This document shows, piece after piece, positions 28,288 through 44,673 of a DNA stretch of 64,000 bases (the stretch's first letter is position 1; each line of letters begins with the position of its first letter). The notes under the pieces were generated by a model. It made no database searches, was not told where the DNA came from, and worked only from the letters and a program-made list of their open reading frames with translations. Source of the DNA: Candidatus Zhuqueibacterota bacterium. Lineage in GTDB: Bacteria; Zhuqueibacterota; Zhuqueibacteria; Thermofontimicrobiales; Thiofontviventaceae. The DNA lies in NCBI GenBank assembly GCA_036351795.1, contig JAZBPW010000125.1:27171-91170 (forward strand), read 5' to 3'. A program made the position numbers and the translations under genes.

Positions 28288-31200
28288 ATGAGAAGGAAGC
28301 ACCTTTGTGTATTTTTTGCAGCACTGGCAATTCTCATTGGAAATGGGAGTTATGCAACTGCGCAATCTACTGGTTCATTGGTAAATTTATCTGCAAGCGC
28401 CCAGAATGATGGGGCGGGTGCAGAATCGATATATACATTTACTTTCACGACATCGAATAACGGGAATGGCATTGATATCGGTATTCCAGCGAATGGAAAG
28501 ATATTCTTTGAATTTGAAGCCGATTTCGATCTCAGTCAGGTCTCTATTGCGTATGTCGTATCGGGAATGAATGGTGGCTTCGCATCGATCGTCGATACGA
28601 GCGGTACCGGACTGGAGTTGTTTATTACCCGTGATGGAACCGGAACTGCTGTTTCGAGAAATGCCACGGTAAGCATACGTATTGCAAATGTGGTGAACGC
28701 AACTACAGTCGGTGGCTCTTACAGAATCTATGTGAAGACCATGACGAATGCGAACACTCATATCGATCAGGGTACGGTTTCAGGTTTTGATATCAATGCC
28801 GGCCCGATGGATTATATAAGGATCGAGGACCTGCCGGATGGCATCGGTGCTGAGTTTGGATCAGCAACGCTTTCGTCCGGACAGACCCGAAACATGTATG
28901 CGGTTGGTTATGATGCATACGGAAATTATGCCGGCAACATGAATGTGGATTGGAGTGTTGCTGGTGGGATTGGTACGGTCTCTCCAGCTGTCAATTCCAG
29001 CATCACGCTGTTTACGGCGACAATTACAGGGACGGGGAATGTCGTTGCGGATGATGGAAGCAGAAATGTTGACAATACCGGCGAAATCACTGTCAATCCA
29101 GGAACGCTGAGTTATGTGAAGATCGTCGAGGGAGTGGCTGGAGATGGCAGCGAACTCACAACAAAATCGCTCACAACGGACCAGTCGCTTCTCGTACATG
29201 CGGCAGGATATGATCTGTACGATAACTATATCAACGATGTCGCCGTTGACTGGTCTGTGAATGACAGTCTCGGTTCGATCGCACCCGCCACAGGACCACA
29301 GGCAGTGTTCGAACCGGATAAAACAGGTACGGGTCAAATACTTGCTGATCATGCGACGGCAACGGATGATCAGACGGGAGATATTACTGTCAACGCTGGT
29401 GCATTGAAGCGTATCCGCATCGTTGACGGAGCGTCCGGGGACGGTATCGAACTGGGAACAAAGAATCTCTCCACCGGAGATACGCTGACAGTGCATGCAG
29501 CGGGATATGATGCAGATGGAAATTACAGGGAAGATCCGCAGGTGAGCTGGACAGTTGTCAATGATATCGGCACGGTGACCCCTGCGGCCAATTCTGAGAT
29601 AACGAATTTCGTCGCGACACGCATTGGTTCGGGATTTATCAAGGCGACGCATCCCGATGCCGGTAGTGACCTGACAGATGAAATTACAGTAGGCAGTGGA
29701 CAGTTGCATCGGATCCTCATACAGAATAAGCCCGGTGGTATGGGCACGACTGTTCAGGATACTGTCGTATATTTGAATCAGACGACTCGTTTTTACGCGG
29801 CCGGGTATGACGAATATGGTAACTATATTCGGGATATAGATGCTACGTGGAAGCATATCGGGAATTTCAGCTTTCCTGACTCTCTTGTTGCTGATGAAAT
29901 ATCAATAGCACCACAGCAGCTGGGTTTGAGTGGCCGGTTTACCGCAGATAGCGCCGGACTTGTTCCGGATACGACCGGTCTGATACAGGTTGCGGATATC
30001 AGCTACATTCGGATCAGTGAATCAGCAGAGGGCGGCGGTCAAAAGTACGCAGGGACTGTCCTGTCTGCTGATGATTCTGTGACATTGTTCGCTGCGGCAT
30101 ACGATGTCAGCGATAATTTCATTGATACGGTGACAGTAAATTGGGTTGTCGAGAATATGGAGCCGTCGGAGGGAGTCGCGGGGTCCAGGTTTACTTTTTC
30201 GCCCACTGTTGCACATCTGAGCGGAAGAATTATCGCGGACCACGCTTATGCGAGAGATGATTCCACCGGATTGATAACGATAGTGCCGGGCGTTCCTTTC
30301 GGACATTTTCAGATGAATGTCGATTCGACAGAGCTTTCTGCCAATGGCAGCGATCAGACCGGTATTATGTCGGACACAATTTATGATTATGACGGCAATG
30401 TGATTCAGCAAAACAGCCAATTCACTGTTGTTGCCAAACCGTCGAATCTTGGTTTAATGGTGACACCCGCAGATGTAAATAGCACGATAGCGGGGCACCA
30501 AATCAATTCAGATGCGCAGGGGCGCATTTCCTTTACTGTGAGAGCGGGTACTCTGGGGGGCACGGCATATATATCAGTGAACAGCGTAACCGGAAGTGCA
30601 CACGGCGACACGACGATCTCTTTGTCAGGCATCCGTCTGATATCAGTGACAGCAGAAAAGGAACGGGTGACGCGTAATCAGAATGATGTTCAGGTTCAGA
30701 TGCTCGTTAGGAACACGAGTCCCGAACCGGTTGATTCTCTAGAGGCAGATCTTAAATTTAAAACGTCAACCGGAGAGGATCGTCGGTCGGATTATGAGGT
30801 GTTCACAGGTACATTGCCAATACTCAATGGCGGAGAGCAGAGGATCATTGATCTTTCTGTGAATGTGAAAAGCAACGCGTTACTGGATAGCATTTTTATC
30901 GACGGAATTATCCGGGGCGCAACACAATCAAAGACGGTTGTTCAGGATACATCCGCTGCACAAAAGGATAGCTGGATTGTACAGGATCGGCCTATCCTCA
31001 GGATACTTGGCGTCACTGCGCCGGAGCTTGTAGAACAGGGGACGGTAACAACCGTGCGGTTAAGAGTGAAAAATGAAGGTGAGGCAGAGGCAAGCATAAC
31101 AAAGGACAGCCTCATGTTTTTCACGGCTGATCCGTTGATCGATGTAACGGATGAATACAGCCAGATACCGGAACACAGTTATCCCTATGTTTTAGGCTCT

Positions 31201-34200
31201 GATGAGATTCGGGACCTGCGTTACACAGTGACTGTCGGAGCAAATGCCACGCGAGGCGATGTGATTCTGGATGGATTCATCTCTGGCGTCGACGCGAATT
31301 CCGGCGTTGCTGTTTTTGATGATGACGCTGATACCACGGATACCTGGGAAGTAAAACGAATCGGAGAGATTGATATCACTGACTTTGAGGCGCAGCAGGA
31401 TTATGTCATCTCCGGACAGATGACGCCCTGGACCATTAGAATGAAAGTCGAAAACAAGTTTGAAACTGTCAATATGACTCTGGATAGTGCAGCGCTTCAG
31501 TTCTATACCGGAACCCAGGATATTACATCGGAATTTGAAGTAGAAAATCCAACAAAGTTTCAGGAATACGGCAGCACTGAAATTCTATATGCGGATACAA
31601 CAGAAACGCTTGTTTTCAGTGTCAGGAGCACAACGAATCAAAGAATAGGAAATATACGAATCACGGGCTCTGTCTATTTAAGTGATATTGCCCAATCACA
31701 GCTGACGGATTTTTCGGAGACGCAAATCATTGTGAAAACGCCATCGACACTGCAATTTGGGGAAATAAGCGTGTCGCAGACGGAAGTCACTCAAGCACAG
31801 AATAATGACTGGATGTTTACGGCGGCGGTGACAAATATCGGACAGTCAAATATCATTGCCGATCTGTCGTCCGATTCTACATATCTGGTGTTTTCAGGAT
31901 CCGATGATTTCAAGGTGATAAAACCGTCCAAATTTATCCTGTCTCAAAGCAATGTGATTTCGAGCGGAATGACGGATACGCTGCGGTTCATTGTCGATTC
32001 TACCGGTACTGTTCCGGGGCGCAGTGACATCAAGATTCAGGTGCTGTACGCGGATACGTATGCTGCGCAGGATTCCTTCTACGCCATTGATGCAGAAGCC
32101 TATGTCGATGTTCAAACGCCGGCATCGTTGAAAATATTGGACATGGTGAACATTGGGCCGAATTCGCCCTTTGTAAATACAGGACAGGATTTTCAATTGC
32201 GTGTGGATCTTGCCAATGAGGGTGGTGATGGCGCGCATGACATTCAACTGATTGTCAATACAGATGGGCAATCCACAGTAGTGCCAGTTGAGAATATTTC
32301 TATCGATGGTGAAAGCGTTGATTCTATCTTTGTGGATGTGCACGCTGCCGGTGATTGGAGCTATGGGGAAGTATTCTCAGCCGCCATTTCCGGAGCAGTG
32401 GGAGATAACACCAATGAATTTGATGCTGAAATTATCAAAGCAGCCGATGATGACAGCGCACTTGCTATTTTGCAGCGACCGGCAGAGCTCAGTATTACGA
32501 AAGTTATTCCTGAGTTTGGGACAGTGGAAGCGCTGAGCAGAGACTGGAAGATTTCTGTAGCTGTGCGCCGTGACGGGGCTGAGTCTGTCCGGATAAAGGA
32601 ACCGTCAGCCAATGATCTTCGCTTCTTGATCAATAGCGAAGAACAGGACGATTATATCATTATACCCCCTGAAGGATTCAAAAACTCCGGTGACCTGGTG
32701 TTGTCCGGATGGGATGTTGCAGAGGATACGCTGGTGTACACAGTGGATAAAACCGGTCTGCTGGGTGGAGATGCTTTGATAGAGGCGAATCTTGAAGCGA
32801 CGTATTTGAACAATGACAGTATTGTTTTCGTTCAAGAATCAGACTCCGTGTCCGTGGAAACAACTGCCAATCTGTCTATTTTGCAGACAACACCTGTTTG
32901 TCCGCGTCTGGAAGACGGGGTTGGTATTATCAGTACCGAACAGAATTACAGTATCCGCGTAACCCTGCAGAATTCTGGCGAAGAGGCGGTAGATAATGTG
33001 TGGGTGAGCCTTTTGGGACGGGAGACGTACAGTCAGATGCTCGACTCAATATCGGCGAAAGACCAGGCTTCATTGAGTTTCTTTCTTAAGGCGCCGGATA
33101 TCGAAAAGCGCATAGACTATGTCGCTGTCATTGATTCGGGGATCTCGAGGCTCAGCGGACAGCCGGCTCTTATCGGGTCTTCATACGATTCTGAAGCTTC
33201 GGTAGAGATTCAAAACAAGGCGAGGCTCTCTGTACAGGTAAATCCGGAAGATTCTGTAATGACAGTTGGGGTCTTGTCGTCAATGCGATTTAAGGTTGAA
33301 AATCTGGGTACTGCGAAAACAGACAGCCTGGGAAAGGTGATCATCACCATTCCAGAAAATTATAAAGTCATGAATGGAACGATGCTGGATTCAGTAACCA
33401 CAACGATTGATTTCGTCACCGGAAGAGAAGAGACGCTTCGGGTGGTTCCTCCGGGCGTCACCAGTTTCGGAGACCAGTTCAGAATTACAATGAGCACAAC
33501 TCCGAAAGATATGAATACAAATCTTCCGGCATTCGTGGAGAACCATACGGGAACGATCACAGTAAGCACCGTTGCCTCTGATTTCGATTTGTATACGCGG
33601 ATCACCTGGCCGAATGGCGCGAAAGACAACACCGTCTCCACAGAGCAGCTGTTTGATGTGCGGGTAGATTTTGACGTCTCACCAAATATCAAGCGAATAG
33701 AGGCCGGGTTGGATCTGGCAGATGGCTATCAATTCAGTAGTGGTGTTGAATCAATTCAGGTTGCTGAAAATGATGCTGTCGTCTGGCGTGTCAAAGCGCC
33801 TGTTGAAGAGAATTTGTTACCTGTTAATATGATGGTCACCGCTGTCGGCTATACCGGAACGGTGCAATATGAGCTCAGAGACACTATTGGTGTTGTATCC
33901 CAGAAAAAAGCACAACTGACTTTGGGAAGCCTGGGTATCGTATCGCCGTCGCAGACAGATAGTGTGCTGTCGCTTAATCAGGATTTTACGATTAGTACAA
34001 CCGTTGTGAATGATGGATCGGCGCCTGTCGTGGGGACGGGCACGCTGAGGATAGATTTCGGTGCCACAGGGGTGACAACACTGGAGAACCTGTCGAAAAC
34101 TTTTATAACGGGCACTCCGGTTCTCTGGCACGCGACGGCCCCCGGGAATGTGACTTCAAGAGACGATATATCAATATCCATTGAAAGCGTTCCCTTTGAC

Positions 34201-35802
34201 GGCAATACAACGGATTTTGCATCAGGGATTGGAAACAAACGCTCCTTTAACGTGCGTACGATTGAAGGAGGATTCGTCGAAATTGACAGCATTAAGATCG
34301 TCGATCCAATAGGCGCTACGGATCGTGTCCTTTCAACAAATCAGATATTTACAGTAAGGGCATATCTTCACTGGAACAATTGTGATGCATTGCCCACGAT
34401 GAGTATAAAGCTACCGCCTGGATTCCTCTCAGATATTGAGAGTCAAAATCCTGCAGGAGCCGCAAATCAAGGGATTGTCAGCTGGGAAATTTCAGCACCC
34501 TCCGGTGTTGCGGCAAACCAGATGATCTGGACGGAGGCCAGAGCGAATGATATCAATAGTGGAGCTCTGATCATTGATTCTTCGGATAACATCTCTGTCA
34601 GCGTGGTACGACAGGCTGAGATATGGCTCAACGCGGAAATTATCGAGCCGGACGATGCACTGGACGGGGTGGTTTCGACAGGTCAGCATTTCACGATAAA
34701 AGCGAATATTTTGAAATCAGGGGATGCAAGTCTTGAAGATTTTTATACAGCCCGGCTGACGATGCCAGCCGGACTTGGTTATGTTACAACAGATGCGCTG
34801 GATCAGCGTAAATTATATGACCAGACGGTTTACTGGGAGATTACAGCACCATCAGCGGCCAAAGATGCAGATATTTTTGTTATAAAGCTCGTTGAGCCGC
34901 CCAATGACGAGAATACGAACCAGGGAATTCAAGGCGAAGCCCTTATAGAGGATACCCGGGCCATTCCCATTACTACCGAAGAGAAGAGCGTCACGATATC
35001 CGTGTTACCGAAAAAGGCGAATAATTCTGTTGCAAAGGGAGACAGCAGTATCCCCATGCTCTCGCTGGAGATTCTGATCTCGGGAGATGAAGAGTCCAGT
35101 CATGTCCTGTTCAGCGGCATGAAAATTAAGCTGAAGGATAAATATGGGACGGTGATAGTCAATCCGACACACGCGATATCGAGAATATCGATAAAAAACG
35201 CCACCTTTTCGGAAACGATTTCACTTGGTGAAATAGAGAAAATTCCGGAAACAGAGGCAATTGACATCGCCTTTACAAATAAGGACACATTGATACCGGG
35301 TATATCAAATAAAATCGAATTCATGGTCGATATAGCGCCGGATGCTTCTTTGACGGACTTTCGTCTGAGCATCGATTCATTGAGCTATTTCGATATGATG
35401 GATATAGGCTCGGGACAGCGGCCCAGACTGCAACTCACTGACGGTGAGTCGATCGCCTCCGGATTTTCGGTGATTGTGCCACAGGATTTTGAGCGAGCGT
35501 TTTGGAATTATCCAAATCCATTTGGTTCAGACGGCAGAGAATTAACGACAATTCAATACTTCCTTGACCAGGATAGCGATATTGAGATCAGAATTTATAC
35601 ATTATTGGGCGAGCTGGTATGGTCGCGTCAGTATAGCGCGGATGAACCTCAGGGAAAGAGGGGGCTGCACGATGGTGCTACAGCCATCACATGGAATGGC
35701 AGGAATGAAGGTGGCAACACTGTTTTAAATGGCGTATATATCGCCTATTTAAATACGAGCTACGGAAAAACAGTTACAACCAAGATTGCTGTACTTAAAT
35801 AA
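28288..35802 (+). CDS. Giant (2504 aa) secreted multi-Ig-like surface protein with a FlgD-Ig / T9SS-like C-terminal domain
   Basis: Signal peptide; tandem beta-rich modules; C-terminal WNYPNPF...IQYFL...IRIYTLLGELV...TWNGRNEGGNTVLNGVYIAYL...KIAVLK. Confidence 0.85.
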   Translation: MRRKHLCVFFAALAILIGNGSYATAQSTGSLVNLSASAQNDGAGAESIYTFTFTTSNNGNGIDIGIPANGKIFFEFEADFDLSQVSIAYVVSGMNGGFASIVDTSGTGLELFITRDGTGTAVSRNATVSIRIANVVNATTVGGSYRIYVKTMTNANTHIDQGTVSGFDINAGPMDYIRIEDLPDGIGAEFGSATLSSGQTRNMYAVGYDAYGNYAGNMNVDWSVAGGIGTVSPAVNSSITLFTATITGTGNVVADDGSRNVDNTGEITVNPGTLSYVKIVEGVAGDGSELTTKSLTTDQSLLVHAAGYDLYDNYINDVAVDWSVNDSLGSIAPATGPQAVFEPDKTGTGQILADHATATDDQTGDITVNAGALKRIRIVDGASGDGIELGTKNLSTGDTLTVHAAGYDADGNYREDPQVSWTVVNDIGTVTPAANSEITNFVATRIGSGFIKATHPDAGSDLTDEITVGSGQLHRILIQNKPGGMGTTVQDTVVYLNQTTRFYAAGYDEYGNYIRDIDATWKHIGNFSFPDSLVADEISIAPQQLGLSGRFTADSAGLVPDTTGLIQVADISYIRISESAEGGGQKYAGTVLSADDSVTLFAAAYDVSDNFIDTVTVNWVVENMEPSEGVAGSRFTFSPTVAHLSGRIIADHAYARDDSTGLITIVPGVPFGHFQMNVDSTELSANGSDQTGIMSDTIYDYDGNVIQQNSQFTVVAKPSNLGLMVTPADVNSTIAGHQINSDAQGRISFTVRAGTLGGTAYISVNSVTGSAHGDTTISLSGIRLISVTAEKERVTRNQNDVQVQMLVRNTSPEPVDSLEADLKFKTSTGEDRRSDYEVFTGTLPILNGGEQRIIDLSVNVKSNALLDSIFIDGIIRGATQSKTVVQDTSAAQKDSWIVQDRPILRILGVTAPELVEQGTVTTVRLRVKNEGEAEASITKDSLMFFTADPLIDVTDEYSQIPEHSYPYVLGSDEIRDLRYTVTVGANATRGDVILDGFISGVDANSGVAVFDDDADTTDTWEVKRIGEIDITDFEAQQDYVISGQMTPWTIRMKVENKFETVNMTLDSAALQFYTGTQDITSEFEVENPTKFQEYGSTEILYADTTETLVFSVRSTTNQRIGNIRITGSVYLSDIAQSQLTDFSETQIIVKTPSTLQFGEISVSQTEVTQAQNNDWMFTAAVTNIGQSNIIADLSSDSTYLVFSGSDDFKVIKPSKFILSQSNVISSGMTDTLRFIVDSTGTVPGRSDIKIQVLYADTYAAQDSFYAIDAEAYVDVQTPASLKILDMVNIGPNSPFVNTGQDFQLRVDLANEGGDGAHDIQLIVNTDGQSTVVPVENISIDGESVDSIFVDVHAAGDWSYGEVFSAAISGAVGDNTNEFDAEIIKAADDDSALAILQRPAELSITKVIPEFGTVEALSRDWKISVAVRRDGAESVRIKEPSANDLRFLINSEEQDDYIIIPPEGFKNSGDLVLSGWDVAEDTLVYTVDKTGLLGGDALIEANLEATYLNNDSIVFVQESDSVSVETTANLSILQTTPVCPRLEDGVGIISTEQNYSIRVTLQNSGEEAVDNVWVSLLGRETYSQMLDSISAKDQASLSFFLKAPDIEKRIDYVAVIDSGISRLSGQPALIGSSYDSEASVEIQNKARLSVQVNPEDSVMTVGVLSSMRFKVENLGTAKTDSLGKVIITIPENYKVMNGTMLDSVTTTIDFVTGREETLRVVPPGVTSFGDQFRITMSTTPKDMNTNLPAFVENHTGTITVSTVASDFDLYTRITWPNGAKDNTVSTEQLFDVRVDFDVSPNIKRIEAGLDLADGYQFSSGVESIQVAENDAVVWRVKAPVEENLLPVNMMVTAVGYTGTVQYELRDTIGVVSQKKAQLTLGSLGIVSPSQTDSVLSLNQDFTISTTVVNDGSAPVVGTGTLRIDFGATGVTTLENLSKTFITGTPVLWHATAPGNVTSRDDISISIESVPFDGNTTDFASGIGNKRSFNVRTIEGGFVEIDSIKIVDPIGATDRVLSTNQIFTVRAYLHWNNCDALPTMSIKLPPGFLSDIESQNPAGAANQGIVSWEISAPSGVAANQMIWTEARANDINSGALIIDSSDNISVSVVRQAEIWLNAEIIEPDDALDGVVSTGQHFTIKANILKSGDASLEDFYTARLTMPAGLGYVTTDALDQRKLYDQTVYWEITAPSAAKDADIFVIKLVEPPNDENTNQGIQGEALIEDTRAIPITTEEKSVTISVLPKKANNSVAKGDSSIPMLSLEILISGDEESSHVLFSGMKIKLKDKYGTVIVNPTHAISRISIKNATFSETISLGEIEKIPETEAIDIAFTNKDTLIPGISNKIEFMVDIAPDASLTDFRLSIDSLSYFDMMDIGSGQRPRLQLTDGESIASGFSVIVPQDFERAFWNYPNPFGSDGRELTTIQYFLDQDSDIEIRIYTLLGELVWSRQYSADEPQGKRGLHDGATAITWNGRNEGGNTVLNGVYIAYLNTSYGKTVTTKIAVLK
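28807..30291 (+). repeat. Five tandem ~99-aa Ig-like repeats in the giant protein
   Basis: Each unit shows I.I...(G.G)...A.(G/A)YD..(G/D)N(Y/F)...W...TG.I.V; 1485 nt = 5 x 99 codons. Confidence 0.85.
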
Positions 35803-35815
35803 TAAAGGCCGGCGT

Positions 35816-37726
35816 ATGAAAAGACTAATTATATTGATTCTGTTGATGGGGGCATTGGTTTCGAATATCCATGCGGGTGGTGAAGCGGGAACGCTTCAGA
35901 TATTCAGTCGGGGAGGAGTCGGAGCCAGAGCCATGGCACTGGGTAATGCCTACGTGGCAATGCCTTTTGATGCAACGGCGATTTACTGGAATCCGGCAGG
36001 CATGGAATATGTTCAGCATAAATCAGTGAGCCTGTTCTATACGAATCTGTTGGAGTCTTCTCCATATAATTTCATTGCCTATGTCCATCCGACCGTTAAC
36101 ATCGGGACGTTTGGATTGGGCGCCATTCGCGTTGGATCCGGAGATATCAAGAGAACTGATTCGCAAAATGTTGACGAAGGCACTTTTTCGTATAACGAGA
36201 GTCAATTCTTATTCTCCTATGCGAAACGCCTACCGGCACACCTCGCTGCGGGTATCAATCTGAAGCTCCACTATTTTTATATGGATGGTTTCTCCGACAC
36301 CGGTGTCGGCGCGGATATCGGTCTATTGTACAGACCTTCATTTTCCAGTGCTTTGTTGCGCAATATATCATTCGGAGTGAATCTGCACAATATCCTGCAG
36401 CCTCAGCTGAAGCCGCTTGAATCAACGGATGTTCATCCGTACATCGTCAAATTTGGCCTGGCCAAGCCGTTGCTTTTTGGCGATGGTGGTAACAAAATGT
36501 CTCTTTTCATGGATCTGGAGCAAGGTGGGGGCAACAGTCCGTTTATGTTTCATTTGGGCAGTGAATACGTTTTCCAGGAGCGGGCCATGCTGCGGGCAGG
36601 TATCAACAATGGATATATTGCATTTGGCGCCGGAGTCAGCTATGGCATGTACCAACTGGACTATTCATACGGGAAGATGGCGCAGCATGAACTGAACGCG
36701 AGTCATCGTATATCACTGACATTTGACTTTGGAATGTCCCGATCGGATATGATGCGTATTGCCGAGGAGAAAAAGCTTCGGATCATCGAAGAACAGGTTG
36801 CCAAGAAGATCGAATGGGATCGTAATGAGAAAATCGCCCGCGCCATGGAAAACGGAAAGAGATACATGCAGGATGAGGATTATGTGCGCGCCCAAAGAGA
36901 GTTTAATATCGTGATCGGTTTTGAAAACGAGATTCCGGAAGCGTTGGAAATCAAGGAAGCGAAGGAACTGTACGCGCTCGCCACGGAAAAATACGAGGAC
37001 AAGACAAAGAAGGCTATTGCGGAGATACAGGCGAAAGATGCGCTGGACAGGAAGAAGAAGGAAGACCAGATATATATCAATGATCATTTCAAACGCGGAC
37101 TTGCCTTTTATGAGAACGAAGAGTATGAACGGGCAATTGGTGAATGGAATCGAATTCTCGATCGTGATCCCGATAACGAGTTGGCCAAAGAACATATCAA
37201 AAAGGCGCAGGTCGATTATCAGGCAAAGGTATATACGCTGATCAATAGAGCTGACGCATTCGGTAAGCAGGGTAAATATGTCGAAGCGATCAATATTCTG
37301 AACCAGGCGATCGGTTTGAATCCGGATGATCAGACCATCAAACAGGCGATTACGAGAAAGCGGTCTGCATATGAAAACAAGCTCAGTTTCCACGACCTCT
37401 ATGAACAGGGTCAGAATTATCAGCTACGAAAAGAGTATAAGAAAGCGATGGAAGCGTACGAACGGGCCCTGGCAATAGAACCAGATAATACGTTGGCTAA
37501 AAAGAGATACGAAGAAGTGAAGGCGCGTGCATTTGCACGAAGAGAACCCATGACGGAAGAGGTCAGATCAAAGTTTCTTCAAAGTCTTCGTTTAATTAAT
37601 CAGGGTAACTATAACGATGCATTGAAGATATTGGAAGAGATTCAGAAAATTCAGCCATATAACAAAGACATTCTTGATGGAATTGACACGGCCAGGGAAT
37701 ATCTGGAGAGACAAAACAGACAGTAG
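35816..37726 (+). CDS. PorV/PorQ-family outer-membrane beta-barrel fused to a C-terminal TPR region
   Basis: ATG 35816 gives a clean signal peptide; GVGARAMALGNAYVAMPFDATAIYWNPAG, GADIGLLY, last strand HRISLTFDF, then coiled coil and multiple TPRs. Confidence 0.82.
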   Translation: MKRLIILILLMGALVSNIHAGGEAGTLQIFSRGGVGARAMALGNAYVAMPFDATAIYWNPAGMEYVQHKSVSLFYTNLLESSPYNFIAYVHPTVNIGTFGLGAIRVGSGDIKRTDSQNVDEGTFSYNESQFLFSYAKRLPAHLAAGINLKLHYFYMDGFSDTGVGADIGLLYRPSFSSALLRNISFGVNLHNILQPQLKPLESTDVHPYIVKFGLAKPLLFGDGGNKMSLFMDLEQGGGNSPFMFHLGSEYVFQERAMLRAGINNGYIAFGAGVSYGMYQLDYSYGKMAQHELNASHRISLTFDFGMSRSDMMRIAEEKKLRIIEEQVAKKIEWDRNEKIARAMENGKRYMQDEDYVRAQREFNIVIGFENEIPEALEIKEAKELYALATEKYEDKTKKAIAEIQAKDALDRKKKEDQIYINDHFKRGLAFYENEEYERAIGEWNRILDRDPDNELAKEHIKKAQVDYQAKVYTLINRADAFGKQGKYVEAINILNQAIGLNPDDQTIKQAITRKRSAYENKLSFHDLYEQGQNYQLRKEYKKAMEAYERALAIEPDNTLAKKRYEEVKARAFARREPMTEEVRSKFLQSLRLINQGNYNDALKILEEIQKIQPYNKDILDGIDTAREYLERQNRQ

Positions 37727-37752: not shown

Positions 37753-40700
37753 GTGTTAAAATCTGTAATCAAAGATGAAATAAAAGTCCCGGGGCATATC
37801 GATTATCTAGGTGAATTGCGAAATTTTGTCACCAAGACGGGTAAAAAATATAATTTTTCAGACAGTATTGTGAATGCGTTCAAACTTGCCATTGATGAAG
37901 CCGCGACTAACATCATCAAGCATGCGTATCGGGACATCGAAGGTGTAATCACGATGCGAATACTGGTCAAGAAAAGAAGCATGACAGTGATTCTGATTGA
38001 TCAGGGAAAATTTTTCGATCCGGCCAGAGTTCAGGCGCCCGATCTTCAGCGTTATGTTGATATCGGTAAAAAGGGAGGATTGGGCATATTTATTATGCGC
38101 AAGCTCATTGATGAGATCGATTACCGGCATACGGAAGAAGGAAATGAACTGCGGCTGACCAAATACCGGGATGGCGATTTCAGAAAAATGACGGATGATG
38201 ATGAGCTTCCCTCCGCATCCGCGCTTTCACTGAGTCTTAAAACGAGATATTCGCTCTTTGCCGCCGGTATACTGACGATCCTGATGAGTATTGGCTATAT
38301 CTATTTTTACTTCAGCCATGGACAGCAGACGCTAAACGAAGTGATCTCTGCGGCAAAGACAAATCTGGAGATGATTGCCAGAACAGTCGTTGCGCCCGGA
38401 GACACGACTCTGAATACAGTCTTTATCAATACGACGATACATGAAGCAATTGACCTGGATGAGCATGAAGAGGTCTACAGGATAATCATTACAGACAATA
38501 AAGATCTGACACTATTCAGCAGTGATGATGATATTTTTGGCACCTATTATCAGATACCTGAAGACCACAGGAAAGTGGAAAAATCTGTGTTTTTCTTCGA
38601 AGACAAGTCTTCCAATACCAAACTCTATGATGTTGTAAGCCCCATTCGTGCCGATAATCGGCAGCAACTCGGAGAAATTCATCTCCAGATCCACAATGAT
38701 TTTGTGAAGGATGAAATTGGTGCTTTGAGAGCAAAGGATCTTCGTCTGGCCATGTTGATTCTGGCTATCGGATACTTTGGGATCGCTTTATTGATCTATA
38801 TTGTGATGAACCCTTTTCGCAAGCTCTCCGACTGGGTGAAGCAGCTTGGGCACGGTGAGGTACAGGATGAGATCGATTTCGACACTGGCAATGAGCTGGG
38901 CGAGATAGCAAAAGCATTCAGCGAGATTACGGATAAATTCAGACGATCTCAGGAAAATCTGGCAGAGCAGGAGAGGCTCCAGAAGGAGATGCAGCTGGCT
39001 CAGGATATTCAGCAGACACTGCTTCCAAAACATATCCCTGAACTTGAAGGCTACATGATTTCTTCGCACTATGAAGCAGCCATGGAGGTCGGAGGAGACT
39101 ACTACGACTTTGTTGACGTCGACAAAGACTCGATCGGTATCGTGGTCGCTGATGTGTCGGGGAAGGGTGTTCCTGGTTCACTCATAATGACGATGATCCG
39201 TACCGCGCTCAGAACAGAGGCCCGGGGTGTGAAGTCTGCATCAGAAGTTCTGGCACGATTGAATGACTTTGTTGTCAAGGACATGAAGAAGGGCATGTTC
39301 GTCACGATCTTCTATGTGATCATAGATTCGAAGAGAAGGCGAGTGAATTACGCGAGCGCCGGACATAATCCCATGATCCTTTATCGGCAAAGCACTGAGA
39401 AAACCTATTATCTCAATCCGAAGGGTTTTCCCGTAGGGATTTCGTTGCCGGATCAGGAGTTGTTCAAAAAATCCATAGAATCGGACACCATTCAGCTCGC
39501 TGAAGATGATATTCTGCTCATCTATACCGATGGTATAACAGAAGCCATGAATTCACACAGAGAGTTGTTCGGTGAGGAGCGTCTGCTGGAGACGATTAGG
39601 AGGAACGCGGAATTACAGGCACAGCCGTTCATAGAAAAAGTGAAGGACGAGATCCATTCCTTTACTGAGGGATTTGAACAGAACGACGATATCACCATTG
39701 TGGCGATCAAAGAGAAGAGTTCTCCGGAAAAAATTGAATTATCACGCGCGCAAAATGCGCACCAGATGATCAATTCTACGGGTATCAGCATCAAGGATGC
39801 CTGTGAGGAGGCGGGAATTACCACATATGCCTATTACAATAAATACAAAAAAATCTTTGAAGAGGAAGGGATCGAAGCCTATTCTATTGATGATACAATC
39901 TCTGTGGAAGCGAAACATTTGAGCATCGAAGAAAAAACAAAGATCTATGACATCATCAAGACACATCCGGAGTATGGCGCAAAACGAATCAGTGAAGAAC
40001 TGCAATCGGAACGCTATGGAAGCACAGTGATCAACGAGAGTCGCATCTATGAAGAACTCGTCCGAAGCCGCCTGAATACACGCCAGCTAAGAGAGGCATA
40101 TATCGCAAGGGCCGGCAAGAAGAAGCGAATGAAACCGCCTGGAACACCAATGCTGACACTGGATGGACGCATTATACTCGATCGCGACTATTACGAACAT
40201 TATGAGGAAGAGAGACCGGAGAAGAGAGCGCCGGAAAAATTGAAGGAAAAGAAAAAGATAGATGCCGAGAAGACGGCAGCAGAGGATTCCGGCCAGGTAG
40301 CAGCAGAGGAGATATCGGGAGACCCGAACGAGAATTTCGACGAGGACTTTTACATTGAGAGCCTGATGACGGTTCCTTTGGAAAATCTCCTCGATAAGAG
40401 CAACAAGAAAAAGTCTGCTCCGAAAGTTGAAAAGACAGAAGATGAAGAAGTTGAAGAGGTGGATGAGAAAGCTGGGGGTGACGAAGAGATGGTTGAACCG
40501 GAACGCCAGGCAGGGGAAGAAGTGACTGCGGACGATACGACTGAAACTGAGTCGTCTGGCGAGGTTCCGGCGGATGATAATTTGAGTAATGAATATTCTG
40601 AAATAGATGAGGGGGATGAAGAATTCATTGATGCAATCGAAGAGAAGATCATCGCGGAGCTCGATGAAAAGGCCGGGCAGGATCTGTTTGATGATGATAT

Positions 40701-41706
40701 AGAGATGGTTGATCATGAGCAGAAGAAGAAAGAACCGGATGACATTGAAGAGCCGGACACACAGGGACTTGAAGAAGATGTGATTGACGATGAAACCGAC
40801 CTTGATCAGGAGTTCAGCTTCAAAGATGTCTGGGAAGACGATGATGAAGGTGTTGAAGAACTCAGTGACAGCGAAGATGTTGCAAACCTTGATAGCATCG
40901 ACGAAGATGTCGAGATGAATCTTGGTAATGCTGAAGATTCACAGGATATCATGGATGAAATTCTCAATGAGGATGAGATCACATTTGAAAACCTGGCGGA
41001 AGAGGACAATTTCGACCGGTCTTCATACGATAAAGATGACAATAATGGTTCGTATGAGGAAAAAGGTAAAAAGCGGGGGAAAAAGTCAAAGAAAAAGAAA
41101 AAAAGTGATGCCGGGGATGACGATCAGAAATCTGGTAATGAGGAAAAAGCCGAAGATGACGGGTTTACTTTTGGCACATTACTCGATGAAATTGAGCATG
41201 ATCTGTCGTATATCGATGACGATATCGGTTTTGATGAGGACGACCTGGTTGATTCAAATAAAATGGTTATCTCGGGCGAAAATATAGATATACAGGACAA
41301 TATCCAGTCGATGGATAAGAGAGAACTTGATCAGGCATTACAGAACGACAATTTATTATCCGGCCTGAAGCATTATAAAAATGATGATTTTGAAAAGGCG
41401 ATCGATGAGTTCAAAAAGGTTCTGGAACTCTATCCGGACTTCAAAGAGGTTCACACTATCATGGGAAACGCCTATTTTAAGAATGACATGAGCGATGAAG
41501 CATTGAAGGAATACATGCGCGTAATCGAAATTGATCCCTATGACGTAGATGCTTATGAAAATCTCGGTGTGATCTATGCCAATCAGGGAGAATATACAAA
41601 GGCGATTGAAGAATGGAAAAAACTTCTGGAAATTGATCCCGAGCGAGGTGATATAAAAGATAATTTGGAGCGCGCGCAGAATATTATTGACGGAGACAAA
41701 GGCTAA
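37753..41706 (+). CDS. Membrane-bound hybrid: RsbW-type Ser kinase + sensor + HAMP + SpoIIE/PP2C phosphatase + HTH + acidic tract + TPR
   Basis: LAIDEAATNIIKHAY, IDQG..FDP, GGLGIFIMRKL; two TM segments; HAMP; VGGDYYD, ADVSGKG, SAGH, YTDGITEA, DDIT; D/E-rich tract; C-terminal TPRs. GTG start. Confidence 0.88.
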   Translation: MLKSVIKDEIKVPGHIDYLGELRNFVTKTGKKYNFSDSIVNAFKLAIDEAATNIIKHAYRDIEGVITMRILVKKRSMTVILIDQGKFFDPARVQAPDLQRYVDIGKKGGLGIFIMRKLIDEIDYRHTEEGNELRLTKYRDGDFRKMTDDDELPSASALSLSLKTRYSLFAAGILTILMSIGYIYFYFSHGQQTLNEVISAAKTNLEMIARTVVAPGDTTLNTVFINTTIHEAIDLDEHEEVYRIIITDNKDLTLFSSDDDIFGTYYQIPEDHRKVEKSVFFFEDKSSNTKLYDVVSPIRADNRQQLGEIHLQIHNDFVKDEIGALRAKDLRLAMLILAIGYFGIALLIYIVMNPFRKLSDWVKQLGHGEVQDEIDFDTGNELGEIAKAFSEITDKFRRSQENLAEQERLQKEMQLAQDIQQTLLPKHIPELEGYMISSHYEAAMEVGGDYYDFVDVDKDSIGIVVADVSGKGVPGSLIMTMIRTALRTEARGVKSASEVLARLNDFVVKDMKKGMFVTIFYVIIDSKRRRVNYASAGHNPMILYRQSTEKTYYLNPKGFPVGISLPDQELFKKSIESDTIQLAEDDILLIYTDGITEAMNSHRELFGEERLLETIRRNAELQAQPFIEKVKDEIHSFTEGFEQNDDITIVAIKEKSSPEKIELSRAQNAHQMINSTGISIKDACEEAGITTYAYYNKYKKIFEEEGIEAYSIDDTISVEAKHLSIEEKTKIYDIIKTHPEYGAKRISEELQSERYGSTVINESRIYEELVRSRLNTRQLREAYIARAGKKKRMKPPGTPMLTLDGRIILDRDYYEHYEEERPEKRAPEKLKEKKKIDAEKTAAEDSGQVAAEEISGDPNENFDEDFYIESLMTVPLENLLDKSNKKKSAPKVEKTEDEEVEEVDEKAGGDEEMVEPERQAGEEVTADDTTETESSGEVPADDNLSNEYSEIDEGDEEFIDAIEEKIIAELDEKAGQDLFDDDIEMVDHEQKKKEPDDIEEPDTQGLEEDVIDDETDLDQEFSFKDVWEDDDEGVEELSDSEDVANLDSIDEDVEMNLGNAEDSQDIMDEILNEDEITFENLAEEDNFDRSSYDKDDNNGSYEEKGKKRGKKSKKKKKSDAGDDDQKSGNEEKAEDDGFTFGTLLDEIEHDLSYIDDDIGFDEDDLVDSNKMVISGENIDIQDNIQSMDKRELDQALQNDNLLSGLKHYKNDDFEKAIDEFKKVLELYPDFKEVHTIMGNAYFKNDMSDEALKEYMRVIEIDPYDVDAYENLGVIYANQGEYTKAIEEWKKLLEIDPERGDIKDNLERAQNIIDGDKG

Positions 41707-41713
41707 ATTTTTA

Positions 41714-41742
41714 TTGACTTTTATCAATTTTTCTATTATATT
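41714..41742 (+). promoter_or_regulatory. Internal sigma70 promoter upstream of the STAS gene
   Basis: TTGACT (41714-41719)-N17-TATATT (41737-41742). Confidence 0.6.
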
Positions 41743-41791
41743 TTTCTAATTGAGAGTTTTTTCTCACCCCAAAGATATCAGGAGTTAAAAA

Positions 41792-42466
41792 ATGGAAGGA
41801 ATCCAACTTTCTGTAAAGCAGACAGGAGCGAACAATGATATATCAATCATAAAAGTTGGTGGATATATAGATACAACGACATCTGCAGAGCTTGAGCACT
41901 CATTGGATACATTATTAAAATCGAACAATTACAATATTATTATTGACCTGGAAAACGTTGACTATATCAGCAGCGCCGGTTGGGGAATTTTCATAAGCGA
42001 ATTGAAGGGGATTCGCGACAGGGGAGGCGACCTAAAACTCGTTAAAATGATGCCGGATGTATACGAGGTCTTTGAGCTGCTCGAATTTCATTATATTCTT
42101 AAGGCATTTGATTCCATAGAAGATGCGATAGCTGACTTTGACAAGCGAAAAGTATTTGATGATTCAAGAGCATATGCGGACTCAGATGTGCCCATGCAAG
42201 GGACTGAGATACAGGAAAAGGTGGGGAGAGACTCTTCGGACCAGCCTCATGAATTACATGACAAGGCGATGTCCGTGGATGACAAAATCAGAAAGCTGGT
42301 CATGGAAAATCCGGAAATAAGCAGTATAACCATGTTCCAGAGGTTGAAGTCAGCCAGGTTCGGAAATCAGAAAATCGGGTACTTTCAATTGTTGAAAGTA
42401 TTGAAGAAGATGAATTTGAATTCCAAAAAGAAGAGAGTGGAATTTTTCAAAAAGCAGAACGCCTGA
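41792..42466 (+). CDS. STAS (anti-sigma-factor antagonist) protein with a C-terminal HTH-like extension
   Basis: GGYIDTTTS, IIIDLENVDYISSAGWG (phospho-acceptor Ser motif), GGDLKL, VYEVFELL; ~100 extra C-terminal residues. Confidence 0.9.
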   Translation: MEGIQLSVKQTGANNDISIIKVGGYIDTTTSAELEHSLDTLLKSNNYNIIIDLENVDYISSAGWGIFISELKGIRDRGGDLKLVKMMPDVYEVFELLEFHYILKAFDSIEDAIADFDKRKVFDDSRAYADSDVPMQGTEIQEKVGRDSSDQPHELHDKAMSVDDKIRKLVMENPEISSITMFQRLKSARFGNQKIGYFQLLKVLKKMNLNSKKKRVEFFKKQNA

Positions 42467-42496
42467 TAGAGGTATTTACATATACGTTATTCGAAA

Positions 42497-42528
42497 GGAG
42501 TCGGTTGTTTCAGCTGACTCCTTTTTTT
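42497..42528 (+). terminator. Rho-independent terminator ending the giant-protein operon
   Basis: GGAGTCGGTTG-TTT-CAGCTGACTCC (11-bp stem with two G-U pairs) followed by T7. Confidence 0.85.
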
Positions 42529-42583: not shown

Positions 42584-43573
42584 ATGTTTATAGACTATGC
42601 AAAGATCACAGTGCGGGCAGGAAACGGGGGGAATGGATGCTTATCGTTCAGACGGGAAAAGTTTGTACCAAAAGGCGGGCCAGATGGCGGCGATGGGGGT
42701 GACGGCGGAAATGTCGTTTGCAAGGCTTCCCGGCATTTGCAAACGCTGTTAGATTTTCGATACCGCAGAGAATATAAGGCGAAAAATGGCCGCCATGGAC
42801 AGGGTGCCAATAAATTTGGCAAGCGTGGAGAGGATCTGGTTATCGAACTCCCCATGGGAACGGTTATAAAGGATGATATTACCGGGGAGCTGATCGGAGA
42901 CCTGGTGGACGATCAACAAACGATTGTGGTGGCAAGGGGAGGTAAAGGCGGGCGAGGCAATGCCAGGTTCGCCACATCGACAAATCAGGCGCCCCGGGAA
43001 TTCGAAGTTGGGTCCAAGGGAGAGTTTCGAACAATCCAGCTCGAACTGAAACTATTGGCAGATGTTGGTCTTGTTGGATTACCGAATGCAGGTAAATCAA
43101 CAATGCTGTCCGTTATTTCGGCGGCCCGCCCGAAAATCGCCGATTATCCTTTTACAACGCTTCAACCTAACCTGGGAATCGTAAAATATCGAGACCACAC
43201 CAGCTTTGTCGTTGCGGATATCCCGGGTCTGATCGAGGGCGCGCATCAAGGCAAGGGGCTCGGCATTCAGTTTATCCGGCATATAGAGCGAACACGTATC
43301 ATCGCGTATCTGATCGACTCGCAATCTGATGATATTATGGGTGATCATAAAATATTAAGAGAAGAGCTGGGAAAATACAATGAGAATTTATTGAAAAAAG
43401 CCTCTTGTGTTTTTCTGACAAAAATAGATACAATTTCCAGTGAGGAGCTGGGTAAAATGACGTCGAAAATACCAGGTTCTATAAAATGGGTGGCGATCTC
43501 ATCGGTGACCGGAGAAGGGATTGATGCTGCGGTATCTGTTTTGTGGGAACTATTGGAAGAGAGCGGGGATTGA
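42584..43573 (+). CDS. obgE: GTPase ObgE
   Basis: FRREKFVPKGGPDGGDGGDGG, GLPNAGKST, ADYPFTT, ADIPGLIEGA. Confidence 0.98.
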   Translation: MFIDYAKITVRAGNGGNGCLSFRREKFVPKGGPDGGDGGDGGNVVCKASRHLQTLLDFRYRREYKAKNGRHGQGANKFGKRGEDLVIELPMGTVIKDDITGELIGDLVDDQQTIVVARGGKGGRGNARFATSTNQAPREFEVGSKGEFRTIQLELKLLADVGLVGLPNAGKSTMLSVISAARPKIADYPFTTLQPNLGIVKYRDHTSFVVADIPGLIEGAHQGKGLGIQFIRHIERTRIIAYLIDSQSDDIMGDHKILREELGKYNENLLKKASCVFLTKIDTISSEELGKMTSKIPGSIKWVAISSVTGEGIDAAVSVLWELLEESGD

Positions 43574-44673
43574 TGTATATAGACATTCCGGATTTGATCA
43601 ATCTTACTGAGATCAATGGTCTCGGGCCTACACGAATTCGATCATTGATCGCAAAATTTCGCAGTGCATCACAGGTGTTTAAAGCGAGTAAAGACGCGTT
43701 GTGCCGTGTAGAGGGGATTGACGTAAAAATTGCAGAGAGCATTAAAACATATAGAAATTTTGATTTCGGAAAAAAGCAGGTGGATCGGATAGATGCTTAT
43801 GGGGGGCGGATATTCACCTTCTGGGACGAAGGGTATCCGTCGATTCTGAAAAGCATATACGACCCGCCGGTAATGCTCTATGTCAAAGGCAATTTTTCTG
43901 ATCAGGATAGATATGCGTTGGGAATTGTGGGAACTCGCCAGCCGACAAATTATGGCAAGCTGGTCACAGAGAAATTATCAAAGGCGCTGGTCAATTTAGG
44001 GATTACGGTCGTGAGCGGGCTCGCGCGGGGGGTCGATACCATCGCCCATTCTGTGGCGGTCAACGGAGGTGGACGCACACTGGCAGTCATTGGATCCGGC
44101 ATCGATGTGATTTATCCTGCTGAGAACAAAGCGCTTGTGGACATAATCATAGAGAATGGGGCCATCATTTCTGAATTTCCTCTGGGGTCATCTCCTGATG
44201 CAGGAAATTTTCCAAGGAGAAATCGCATTATCGCCGGGCTGACGCTCGGAACAGTGGTGACGGAAGCAGGGAAACGAAGCGGGGCCTTGATAACAACGAG
44301 TTTTGCCCTTGATTACAACAGAGAGGTTTTTGCTGTCCCGGGAAATGTAAACAGCAGCAAAAGCATAGGAACGAATGAGCTGATAAAGGCAGGGGCCAAG
44401 CTGGTGTGTGATGTGGATGATATCATTGCGGAAATATCGAGCAAGATCGCTCCATATCTGAATGGAAAACCTGCGGCAGATAGATCGTATGGTGATTTGA
44501 GTCAATTCGAAAAGGAAATACTGGCGATTCTGGAGGATGCTCCGGTGCATATTGATGTTATTTCAAGAAAGCTGGAAAGAAAAACAAATGAGATTCTGGC
44601 CTGTCTCCTCAAGCTTGAGTTCAATGATATCGTGAAACAGCTGCCCGGCAAACAATTCGCAAAGATGATGTGA
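43573..44673 (+). CDS. dprA: DNA-processing protein DprA
   Basis: ATG 43573 overlaps the obgE TGA; YPSILKSIYDPP, IVGTR, SGLARGVD, FPRRNRIIAGL, SGALIT, VFAVPG. Confidence 0.95.
   Translation: MYIDIPDLINLTEINGLGPTRIRSLIAKFRSASQVFKASKDALCRVEGIDVKIAESIKTYRNFDFGKKQVDRIDAYGGRIFTFWDEGYPSILKSIYDPPVMLYVKGNFSDQDRYALGIVGTRQPTNYGKLVTEKLSKALVNLGITVVSGLARGVDTIAHSVAVNGGGRTLAVIGSGIDVIYPAENKALVDIIIENGAIISEFPLGSSPDAGNFPRRNRIIAGLTLGTVVTEAGKRSGALITTSFALDYNREVFAVPGNVNSSKSIGTNELIKAGAKLVCDVDDIIAEISSKIAPYLNGKPAADRSYGDLSQFEKEILAILEDAPVHIDVISRKLERKTNEILACLLKLEFNDIVKQLPGKQFAKMM

Follow-up and report, generated by a model that had tools for sequence, protein, structure and literature searches.

A transposase-type helix-turn-helix module shared by a membrane-spanning kinase-phosphatase and its STAS partner in Zhuqueibacterota

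Introduction

Two adjacent genes in a 64,000-nucleotide stretch of a Candidatus Zhuqueibacterota genome (contig JAZBPW010000125.1; the whole stretch is called the window below, and coordinates refer to it unless another locus is named) raise the question of why a membrane-spanning signalling enzyme and the protein on which it probably acts carry the same helix-turn-helix (HTH) domain, and from where that domain was derived. The first gene (37753..41706, +) encodes a sensor of 1317 amino acids (aa) with a serine kinase and a PP2C phosphatase on one polypeptide, and the second (41792..42466, +) a STAS-HTH protein of 224 aa. An earlier note, made from the sequence alone, had proposed that both proteins contain a domesticated transposase DNA-binding module reused as the output or pairing domain of a phosphorylation switch. 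As judged from profile comparisons, the sensor and the STAS protein do share a homologous HTH unit, and its descent from the leading part of a transposase of the IS481/IS3 type holds; the possible roles of the module are weighed in the Discussion.

Results

Homology of the second sensor HTH unit and the STAS tail

The two segments singled out in the earlier note lie and read exactly as it had them: 39781-40110 is GISIKDACEEAGITTYAYYNKYKK...LNTRQLREAYIAR, residues 677-786 of the sensor frame, and 42269-42466 is MSVDDKIRKLVMENPE...KKKRVEFFKKQNA up to the stop, residues 160-224 of the STAS-HTH frame. The sensor segment spans two units. HTH1 (residues about 672-712; 39766..39888, +) is of the HTH_28/HTH_23 type, its helix-turn-helix reads ACEEAG-ITTYAYYNKYKK, and a match to the IS481 transposase model begins at its first nucleotide, 39766. 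HTH2 (residues 722-790; 39916..40122, +) is of the HTH_32/HTH_21 type and is delimited by its alignment with the STAS tail, by the Pfam families HTH_32 and HTH_21 and by the AlphaFold2 model. The unit common to the sensor and the STAS tail is HTH2, with the pattern SIEEK...HPEYGAKRISEEL...YG...I...LVRSRLNTRQLR. The tail itself (42272..42463, +) is an HTH_21/HTH_32-like module with a net charge of +11, recognized by its predicted helices and by matches to HTH_21 and to the IS3 transposase model.

The shared module proposed earlier is well supported by profile evidence, according to which sensor residues 722-790 are homologous to STAS residues 161-224. The two segments align directly in BLASTP over 68 aa (E 8e-6, 22% identity), and profile-profile alignment in hhalign, based on 119 sensor and 117 STAS homologues, joins sensor residues 712-790 to the tail over 69 columns with a probability of 97% and a clearly significant E of 9e-11. 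Independent subsets of the homologues gave 95.7% and E 9.8e-9. The real alignment scored 54.7 versus 18.4 (E 5e-3) for the best of 30 column shuffles and 12.3 for the reversed alignment, and the shuffle controls rule out chance similarity. The relationship is likewise recovered by searching in both directions. A sensor-only profile, run against 1.84 billion representative proteins (216 matches at E <= 1e-3), retrieves STAS-plus-tail proteins such as P0344 at E 5.5e-9, and a tail-only profile recovers the sensor from its own genome at E 2.7e-6, as well as from 18 out of 20 relatives whose genomes were searched. As the earlier note had it, the tail corresponds to the second sensor unit, since HTH2 alone matches it in hhalign. 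HTH1 (residues about 672-712) gave no profile-profile match to either the tail or HTH2, so the sensor pair is no internal duplication, an origin that can be ruled out.

HTH fold and kinship with IS481/IS3 transposases

Both segments are predicted to be helical and of the HTH type, in agreement with the fold proposed earlier, with AlphaFold2 confidence values (predicted local distance difference test, pLDDT) of 80-91 within the domains. In the numbering of the sensor segment, HTH1 has helices at 26-33 and 37-51 (pLDDT 82-87), and HTH2 at 71-83, 89-96, 108-117 and 122-133 (80-87 within the unit). The helices of the tail are found at STAS residues 162-172, 178-185, 197-206 and 212-223 (84-91), and a disordered linker parts them from the canonical STAS fold.

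The expectation that the segments would match HTH_23, HTH_28 or HTH_32 was only partly realized. Distant sensors do exceed the Pfam thresholds, as in P0291 with HTH_28 at 30.5 bits (threshold 25) and HTH_23 at 26.5 bits (24.6), but the values of the segment in the window, 1e-3 for HTH_32, 4e-3 for HTH_21 and 2e-2 for HTH_28, are all below the curated cut-offs. The same families recur among 24 sensor homologues at sub-threshold level, in 24, 23 and 22 of them, respectively, with best values of 3e-6 to 8e-5 (3.3e-6 for HTH_28). Among 30 tails, HTH_21 was matched in eight (best 1.3e-6) and the IS3 model in seven (best 5.3e-7), and the matches of the tails are limited to HTH_21, HTH_Tnp_Tc3_2 and IS3.

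The clearest evidence for the transposase type comes from the NCBIfam models. Each of the 24 sensor segments has a match to NF033577, the model of IS481 transposases (best E 1.5e-10), and in the segment from the window residues 18-129 correspond to profile positions 8-116 of 284 with E 1.4e-7. The IS3 model NF033516 is matched by 23 of the 24 at profile positions 91-198 of 369, with E 2.9e-7 for the segment from the window. Both matches fall ahead of the catalytic core and contain the two helical units in the same order, and together with the IS3 and HTH_21 matches of the tails they bear out the claimed likeness to the N-terminal HTHs of IS3/IS481-like transposases. In those transposases the HTH_32/HTH_21 unit follows the first HTH and precedes the DDE core. 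Because the sensor retains the preceding HTH_28-type unit too, it holds the whole two-part N-terminal DNA-binding region of a transposase without the catalytic core. A still clearer transposase-like motif, YPRYGPWRIKRIL, is retained in the tail of a more distant, 219-aa STAS protein from a lineage whose sensor lacks the TPR domain.

The absence of a DDE core, also part of the earlier proposal, was confirmed by Pfam, which detects no rve/DDE family in the sensor or in the STAS protein. Of the 150 profile matches listed, about 75 were scanned, and none turned up there either, one of the listings giving only its 25 commonest families. The IS481-model match ends at position 122 of 284, and 39766-40128 is its only match in the own genome. 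In 20 related genomes the model matched a frame of sensor size (about 1150-1420 aa) at positions 2-122, with the exception of three genomes in which the matches were transposase-sized or fragmentary only.

Structural comparisons point in the same direction without reaching significance. With the two-unit sensor model, the top Foldseek matches in the PDB include Pax5 (probability 0.90), Pax6 (0.89), Pax8, CENP-B and SETMAR, with a best E of 0.075, and in BFVD the top match is a giant-virus transposase (0.95), accompanied by virophage transposases, with a best E of 0.013. The structural check thus placed two-part HTH DNA-binding domains on top but yielded no significant E-value. The model of the STAS protein matched STAS domains alone, so that the fold class of the tail is not assignable by structure. 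Sequence-profile searches of the PDB with both modules gave only spurious matches, to acetyltransferases and to a short repeat of tandem-fusion RecA chains.

Directly after HTH2, the sensor has an invariant motif, KPPGTPMLTLDGRII (KPPGTPxLTLDG; residues 794-808; 40132..40176, +), identified in the alignment of sensor homologues. Its invariant columns in the numbering of the sensor-segment alignment are K140, P142, G143, T144, P145, T148, L149, D150 and G151; it is found in most KSB1-type sensors, and AlphaFold2 places two short strands there. The spacing after HTH2 equals that of the strand bearing the first catalytic aspartate in IS481-like transposases, so that the motif could be a remnant of the core that was lost, which is speculation: the spacing fits, but the hhalign match to three IS481-like transposases of related genomes is weak (E 1.7e-3, probability 15%), and the catalytic aspartate is not aligned.

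The sensor and the STAS-HTH protein

The sensor consists of an RsbW-type serine kinase, a transmembrane segment, a periplasmic region, a second transmembrane segment, HAMP, PP2C, HTH1, HTH2, the KPPG motif, an acidic tract and a TPR domain, in this order, as delimited by the open reading frame list and Pfam and with an identical architecture in 383 homologues. The RsbW/SpoIIAB-like kinase domain (residues 16-137; 37798..38163, +) matches HATPase_c_2 (PF13581) over profile positions 5-127 of 127 with 86.3 bits versus a cut-off of 27.4 (E 2.3e-24). Two hydrophobic segments bracket the periplasmic region, which is a single-Cache domain (sCache_3_2) in more distant relatives, and Pfam places HAMP at residues 347-389. 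The SpoIIE-type PP2C domain (PF07228; residues 458-653; 39124..39711, +) scores 177.9 bits (E 2.8e-52) and is conserved equally to any other part of the sensor. Residues 655-805 are conserved to the same degree as the PP2C core in the 119-homologue alignment, and the HTH pair is strongly conserved, with 66-88% identity among homologues. No match to Response_reg was found in the sensor by Pfam.

The acidic tract (residues 812-1185; 40186..41307, +), which separates the HTH pair from the TPR domain, is poorly conserved and has a net charge of -99 in 374 aa. Across 116 homologues its median length is 368 aa and its median charge -79, with low column conservation and many gaps. Such a tract could mimic DNA or electrostatically trap the STAS tails with their charge of +9 to +11. 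The sensor ends in a TPR domain (residues 1197-1300; 41341..41652, +; Pfam TPR_1, TPR_2 and TPR_11).

In the STAS-HTH protein, a STAS domain (residues 14-112; Pfam PF01740, 2e-17) is followed by a variable linker (118-160) and the basic HTH tail (161-224). The STAS part resembles SpoIIAA/RsbV (Foldseek E 3e-8, TM-score 0.8), and its loop SSAGWG, formed by S60, S61, A62, G63, W64 and G65, is invariant in 50 homologues; S60/S61 is the predicted phosphorylatable site. The kinase, the PP2C domain and the STAS domain with its invariant serine loop are thus likely active parts of a switch. The tail is carried by 1956 STAS homologues, and in the 117-homologue alignment residues 161-220 of it are conserved, in contrast to the linker. 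The two families differ in charge: the tails are basic, with a median of +9 and a range of 6-13 in about 65 aa, the STAS domains are acidic (median -11.5), and the HTH units of the sensor are near neutral, HTH1 having -2 and HTH2 +3.

A predicted sigma-70-type promoter, TTGACT-17-TATATT (41714..41742, +; 10/12 match in a pattern scan), precedes the STAS gene, where the block TATTGACTTTTA...TATTATATT is visibly kept in most of the 40 related loci inspected, and a strong intrinsic terminator with a 15-pair stem and a T run follows it (42493..42525, +). With its own promoter-like block and terminator, the STAS gene is probably a single-gene transcription unit adjoining the sensor gene.

Three copies of the module and a link to a polysaccharide cluster

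According to the tail profile, the own genome contains the module exactly three times, in the sensor, in the adjacent STAS-HTH protein (STAS-1) and in a second STAS-plus-tail paralogue of 248 aa (STAS-2; E 6e-19), encoded on another contig (C35; locus L097, 9281-10027, -). Exactly three copies are also present in 17 of the 20 related genomes searched, that is in 18 of 21 with the own genome, and the remaining three are 77-85% complete. STAS-2 heads a cluster (L097 1057-9188, -) which encodes Wza (Poly_export/SLBB), Wzc (GNVR and a ParA-like part), an epimerase, an initiating sugar transferase (Bac_transf), a UDP-glucose dehydrogenase and a GT4 glycosyltransferase, and it stands at the head of the same polysaccharide cluster in all ten relatives checked. 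STAS-1 is not in a polysaccharide locus. The three-copy set, including a STAS-HTH protein linked to exopolysaccharide (EPS), is new here. Upstream of STAS-2, the sequence TGGCAT-N5-TTGCT (L097 10076-10091, -), similar to a sigma-54 -24/-12 element, ends 49 nt before the GTG start; in the pattern scan of this locus it was the one well-placed match, with two mismatches, and the total of matches was no higher than expected by chance.

Age, spread and neighbourhood

The window stems from a bacterium of the KSB1/Calditrichota type, as judged by the names of the homologues, and the capture of the module is an old one. In 80 fetched KSB1/Calditrichota loci, a four-gene block of giant surface protein, PorV-like protein, sensor and STAS-HTH protein is found wherever the flank permits, and STAS-HTH proteins are encoded in more than 550 species. 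Since the sensor/STAS locus is single-copy, syntenic in 80 species and fixed in position, and since its module is conserved like the PP2C core, the capture is ancient. The term domesticated used in the earlier note is therefore apt as to the transposase-type origin but not in the sense of a recent event, the true IS481-like transposases of relatives being only marginally similar (E 1.7e-3).

Variants of the sensor lack HTH1 and have a double TPR, lack the TPR domain, or continue after the HTH pair into three fused STAS domains; some STAS proteins carry two tail modules. The sensors with three fused STAS domains retain HTH1-HTH2, and the free STAS neighbours in such a lineage have no tails. The TPR part is fused to the sensor in KSB1, whereas other lineages have a free-standing TPR protein of about 375 aa, its gene adjoining the STAS gene or genes. 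Among the matches scanned, the nearest relatives outside the system have two HTH_28+HTH_32 pairs in tandem, some as stand-alone proteins and some joined to GT2 glycosyltransferases. In the metagenomic proteins P0331, P0334, P0352, P0355, P0363 and P0323 such pairs stand N-terminal to the GT2 part, an odd fusion of a DNA-binding-type domain with a polysaccharide synthase. In lineages outside KSB1, the sensor gene overlaps at its end with the gene of a ParA/MinD-like ATPase (L108 11533-12303; L109 4925-5692; L091 8546-9361).

Ahead of the sensor gene, at 28288-37726, lie the genes of a 2504-aa Ig-repeat surface protein and of a 646-aa PorV-like protein with TPR, always so in the 80 loci; the same order is seen in other lineages with different sensor architectures (L091, L108). 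On the 3′ side of the STAS gene, Obg GTPase and DprA genes (42584-44673) follow in most related loci, sometimes past an insert of 1.5-3 kb. Obg is needed for sigma-B stress activation in Bacillus. The recognized neighbours in the 80 loci (giant protein, PorV-like protein, sensor, STAS, Obg and DprA) include no sigma factor gene, the search having been confined to these neighbourhoods.

Discussion

The arrangement suggests a signalling switch that does not need a sigma factor. In the reading that we prefer, and to which we give about an even chance, the STAS-HTH proteins would be phosphorylation-switched DNA-binding outputs similar to CapS, set by a SypE-like two-way enzyme, and the sensor copy of the module would dock or sequester their tails. 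Input through the periplasmic and HAMP regions would tilt the balance between the RsbW-type kinase and the PP2C phosphatase on one polypeptide, as in SypE, and this balance would decide how far S60/S61, the STAS serine, is phosphorylated in each of the two STAS-HTH proteins. The STAS domain, which is acidic (about -12), would then control in cis the basic HTH tail (about +9 to +11), which as the output would bind DNA in the manner of the STAS-wHTH repressor CapS. On the sensor, the HTH pair, the acidic tract (about -80) and the TPR domain would jointly serve as a platform on which the basic tails dock or are sequestered; the HTH pair might also be a weak DNA tether, though not the main output. 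What favours this division of roles is the charge pattern, with basic tails, acidic STAS domains, a near-neutral HTH pair and an acidic tract.

Several points weigh against it. In 75 loci the DNA ahead of the STAS gene showed no conserved operator, just the promoter-like TTGACT-17-TATATT block, and DNA binding by the tails is presumed by analogy. The predicted recognition helices differ in their polar and charged positions (ESRIYEELVRS in the sensor, GYFQLLKVLKK in the tail), which makes it unlikely that both units read the same DNA sequence, and the Foldseek matches of the sensor pair fall short of significance because its two units were modelled with an arbitrary relative orientation (predicted TM-score 0.35). 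A common module in an enzyme and its substrate fits a same-domain docking pair equally, SypA-type STAS proteins act post-transcriptionally, and a sigma factor encoded elsewhere in the genome could still be the target.

Docking alone is the first of the other functions to be considered: DNA binding would have been lost, and HTH2-tail heterodimers would bring both STAS substrates to the membrane enzyme and give specificity, with the output passing through another surface of the STAS domain, as proposed for SypA. This we regard as possible but rather improbable. It is consistent with the presence of the module in the enzyme and both substrates in exactly three copies per genome, with an HTH pair too close to neutral for a typical DNA binder, with a SypA that probably acts through protein contact, and with free STAS proteins that are tailless in the case of sensors with fused STAS domains; the positions best conserved between the two families, moreover, fall within helices one and two and the turn joining them (S-I/V-E-E/D-K...NPE/HPE.G...I...L-N-T) and not in the predicted recognition helix. 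Yet tails with a median of +9 in 65 aa are as basic as expected for nucleic-acid binders, and because the fused-STAS sensors still keep both HTH units, the sensor HTH probably does more than catch tails. In a further reading all three proteins would bind DNA, the sensor being a membrane-tethered factor of the ToxR/CadC kind and the STAS-HTH proteins acting beside it or competing at the same promoters. The sensor does hold a complete and very strongly conserved two-HTH unit in the order of the IS481 N-terminus, the structural analogues ranked highest (Pax, CENP-B and SETMAR) are DNA-binding domains of two parts, and CapK, the kinase of the CapS system, carries an HTH too and is activated by DNA. 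We nevertheless consider it unlikely, as the HTH pair has a net charge of about zero, the acidic tract after it, at -79 to -99, would repel DNA or mimic it, the DNA-binding part would be situated mid-way in a 1317-aa membrane protein, and an operator was not found.

The remaining alternatives concern the origin of the module. Its likeness to transposases might be convergent or generic, the domain being an ordinary winged helix, for example of the MarR/ArsR-like kind present in CapS, with no specific link to insertion sequences (IS). The sub-threshold Pfam matches of the protein in the window, the PDB profile searches without a meaningful match and the marginal similarity to the IS481-like transposases of related genomes would allow for this, but the model matches are specific and ordered as in the models (IS481 8-116, IS3 91-198) in 23-24 of 24 homologues, with E-values down to 1.5e-10, transposase-associated HTH families alone recur, relatives exceed the Pfam thresholds, no MarR or ArsR family is matched, and a whole-protein STAS profile retrieves no CapS-like PDB chain, all of which leaves a generic origin very improbable. 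A decayed IS fused in frame by accident would also explain a transposase-like module, yet we assign practically no probability to such a recent remnant, which is ruled out by the conservation of architecture and synteny in 80 species with matches in more than 550, by a module conserved like the catalytic PP2C core at a fixed position, and by the lack of both a DDE core and any other IS481-model match in the own genome.

Returning to the reading with the tails as output and the sensor as their dock, it is a tentative and on present evidence doubtful further step to see here an undescribed class of partner switch, without a sigma factor and with the output built in, in which one sensor would set two STAS-HTH transcription factors and its HTH units, DNA-mimic tract and TPR domain would hold the tails at the membrane until a signal arrives. 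If this were true, the partner exchanged in the switch would be DNA versus the sensor, and the system would represent, alongside two-component and classical anti-sigma systems, a third general route by which signals at the envelope reach transcription, by way of an exapted transposase DNA-binding domain. The arrangement as a whole would couple two cell-surface systems, a giant surface-protein locus of the type IX secretion system (T9SS) type and a Wza/Wzc polysaccharide operon, with a single sensor.

Comparison with known systems

Among the known systems closest to this one are SypE and SypA of Vibrio fischeri, a kinase-phosphatase enzyme and a STAS protein encoded in the syp polysaccharide locus (PMC4517449, PMC3610818). 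As in the sensor and its 383 homologues, an RsbW-like serine kinase and a PP2C phosphatase lie on one polypeptide in SypE; they act on a STAS protein, as is predicted here, and no sigma factor is the known target. In contrast to the sensor, SypE is soluble, a response regulator whose centre is a receiver (REC) domain where the sensor has transmembrane segments, a periplasmic part and HAMP, and it is without HTH, acidic tract and TPR; SypA likewise is a single-domain STAS protein that lacks an HTH tail. The gene sypA is the first of the syp locus, and the STAS-2 gene similarly comes first in its Wza/Wzc cluster. Partner-switching modules are widespread, yet the outputs of many, SypA included, lack an assignment, whereas here the likely output domain is found in the STAS protein itself and is common to the enzyme. 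A STAS switch has also been reported to control an EPS enzyme in Anabaena (bioRxiv 10.64898/2026.04.08.717354).

The classical RsbW-RsbV-RsbU and SpoIIAB-SpoIIAA-SpoIIE switches use the same three catalytic and regulatory domain families, and the STAS fold and serine loop fit SpoIIAA/RsbV. Here, however, the kinase and phosphatase are fused across the membrane, an effector-type domain is present on the STAS protein, and there is no sigma factor gene at the locus.

As for the module, the two HTH units of IS481/IS3 transposases also follow each other in this order and show the signature hP-x-[YW]-G-x-[KR]-R-I...L...G...[IV]...[IV]-Y-x-L, but they possess an rve/DDE core and are mobile, whereas here the module is without a DDE core and resides inside signalling proteins of a single-copy locus in fixed position; no terminal inverted repeats were seen at the locus, although no search was aimed at them. 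The Pax paired domain, CENP-B and SETMAR are classic transposase DNA-binding domains reused by the host. They share the two-part HTH layout and are the best, albeit non-significant, structural matches of the sensor segment, but they are eukaryotic, derive from Tc1/mariner or pogo elements and are compared here by structure only. The present module would add a clean bacterial case of a transposase DNA-binding region reused in signalling and conserved across KSB1/Calditrichota. No description of the sensor/STAS-HTH family was found in the literature searched.

A precedent for the proposed role of the STAS-HTH protein is CapS, a STAS-wHTH repressor that is released from its promoter upon phosphorylation by CapK, which itself has an HTH (Chambers et al., EMBO J 2026, PMC13373217). 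The two systems have in common a GHKL anti-sigma-type kinase, a substrate built of STAS and a C-terminal HTH, and an HTH on the kinase, and the domain layout of the STAS-HTH proteins matches that of CapS as a DNA-binding output, with DNA binding here predicted by analogy. The HTH of CapS, in contrast, is a MarR/ArsR-like winged helix and not of the HTH_21/HTH_32 type, and no sequence relation to CapS beyond STAS was detected, the whole-protein STAS profile having found no CapS-like PDB chain. CapK also differs in that it has the order HTH-STAS-GHKL, is soluble, is without a phosphatase and is activated by ssDNA, and the CapK/CapS genes adjoin anti-phage operons, whereas the neighbours here are surface-protein and EPS genes. 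Taken together with CapK/CapS, the proteins described here suggest that STAS plus HTH is a recurrent build for a response-regulator analogue switched by serine phosphorylation.

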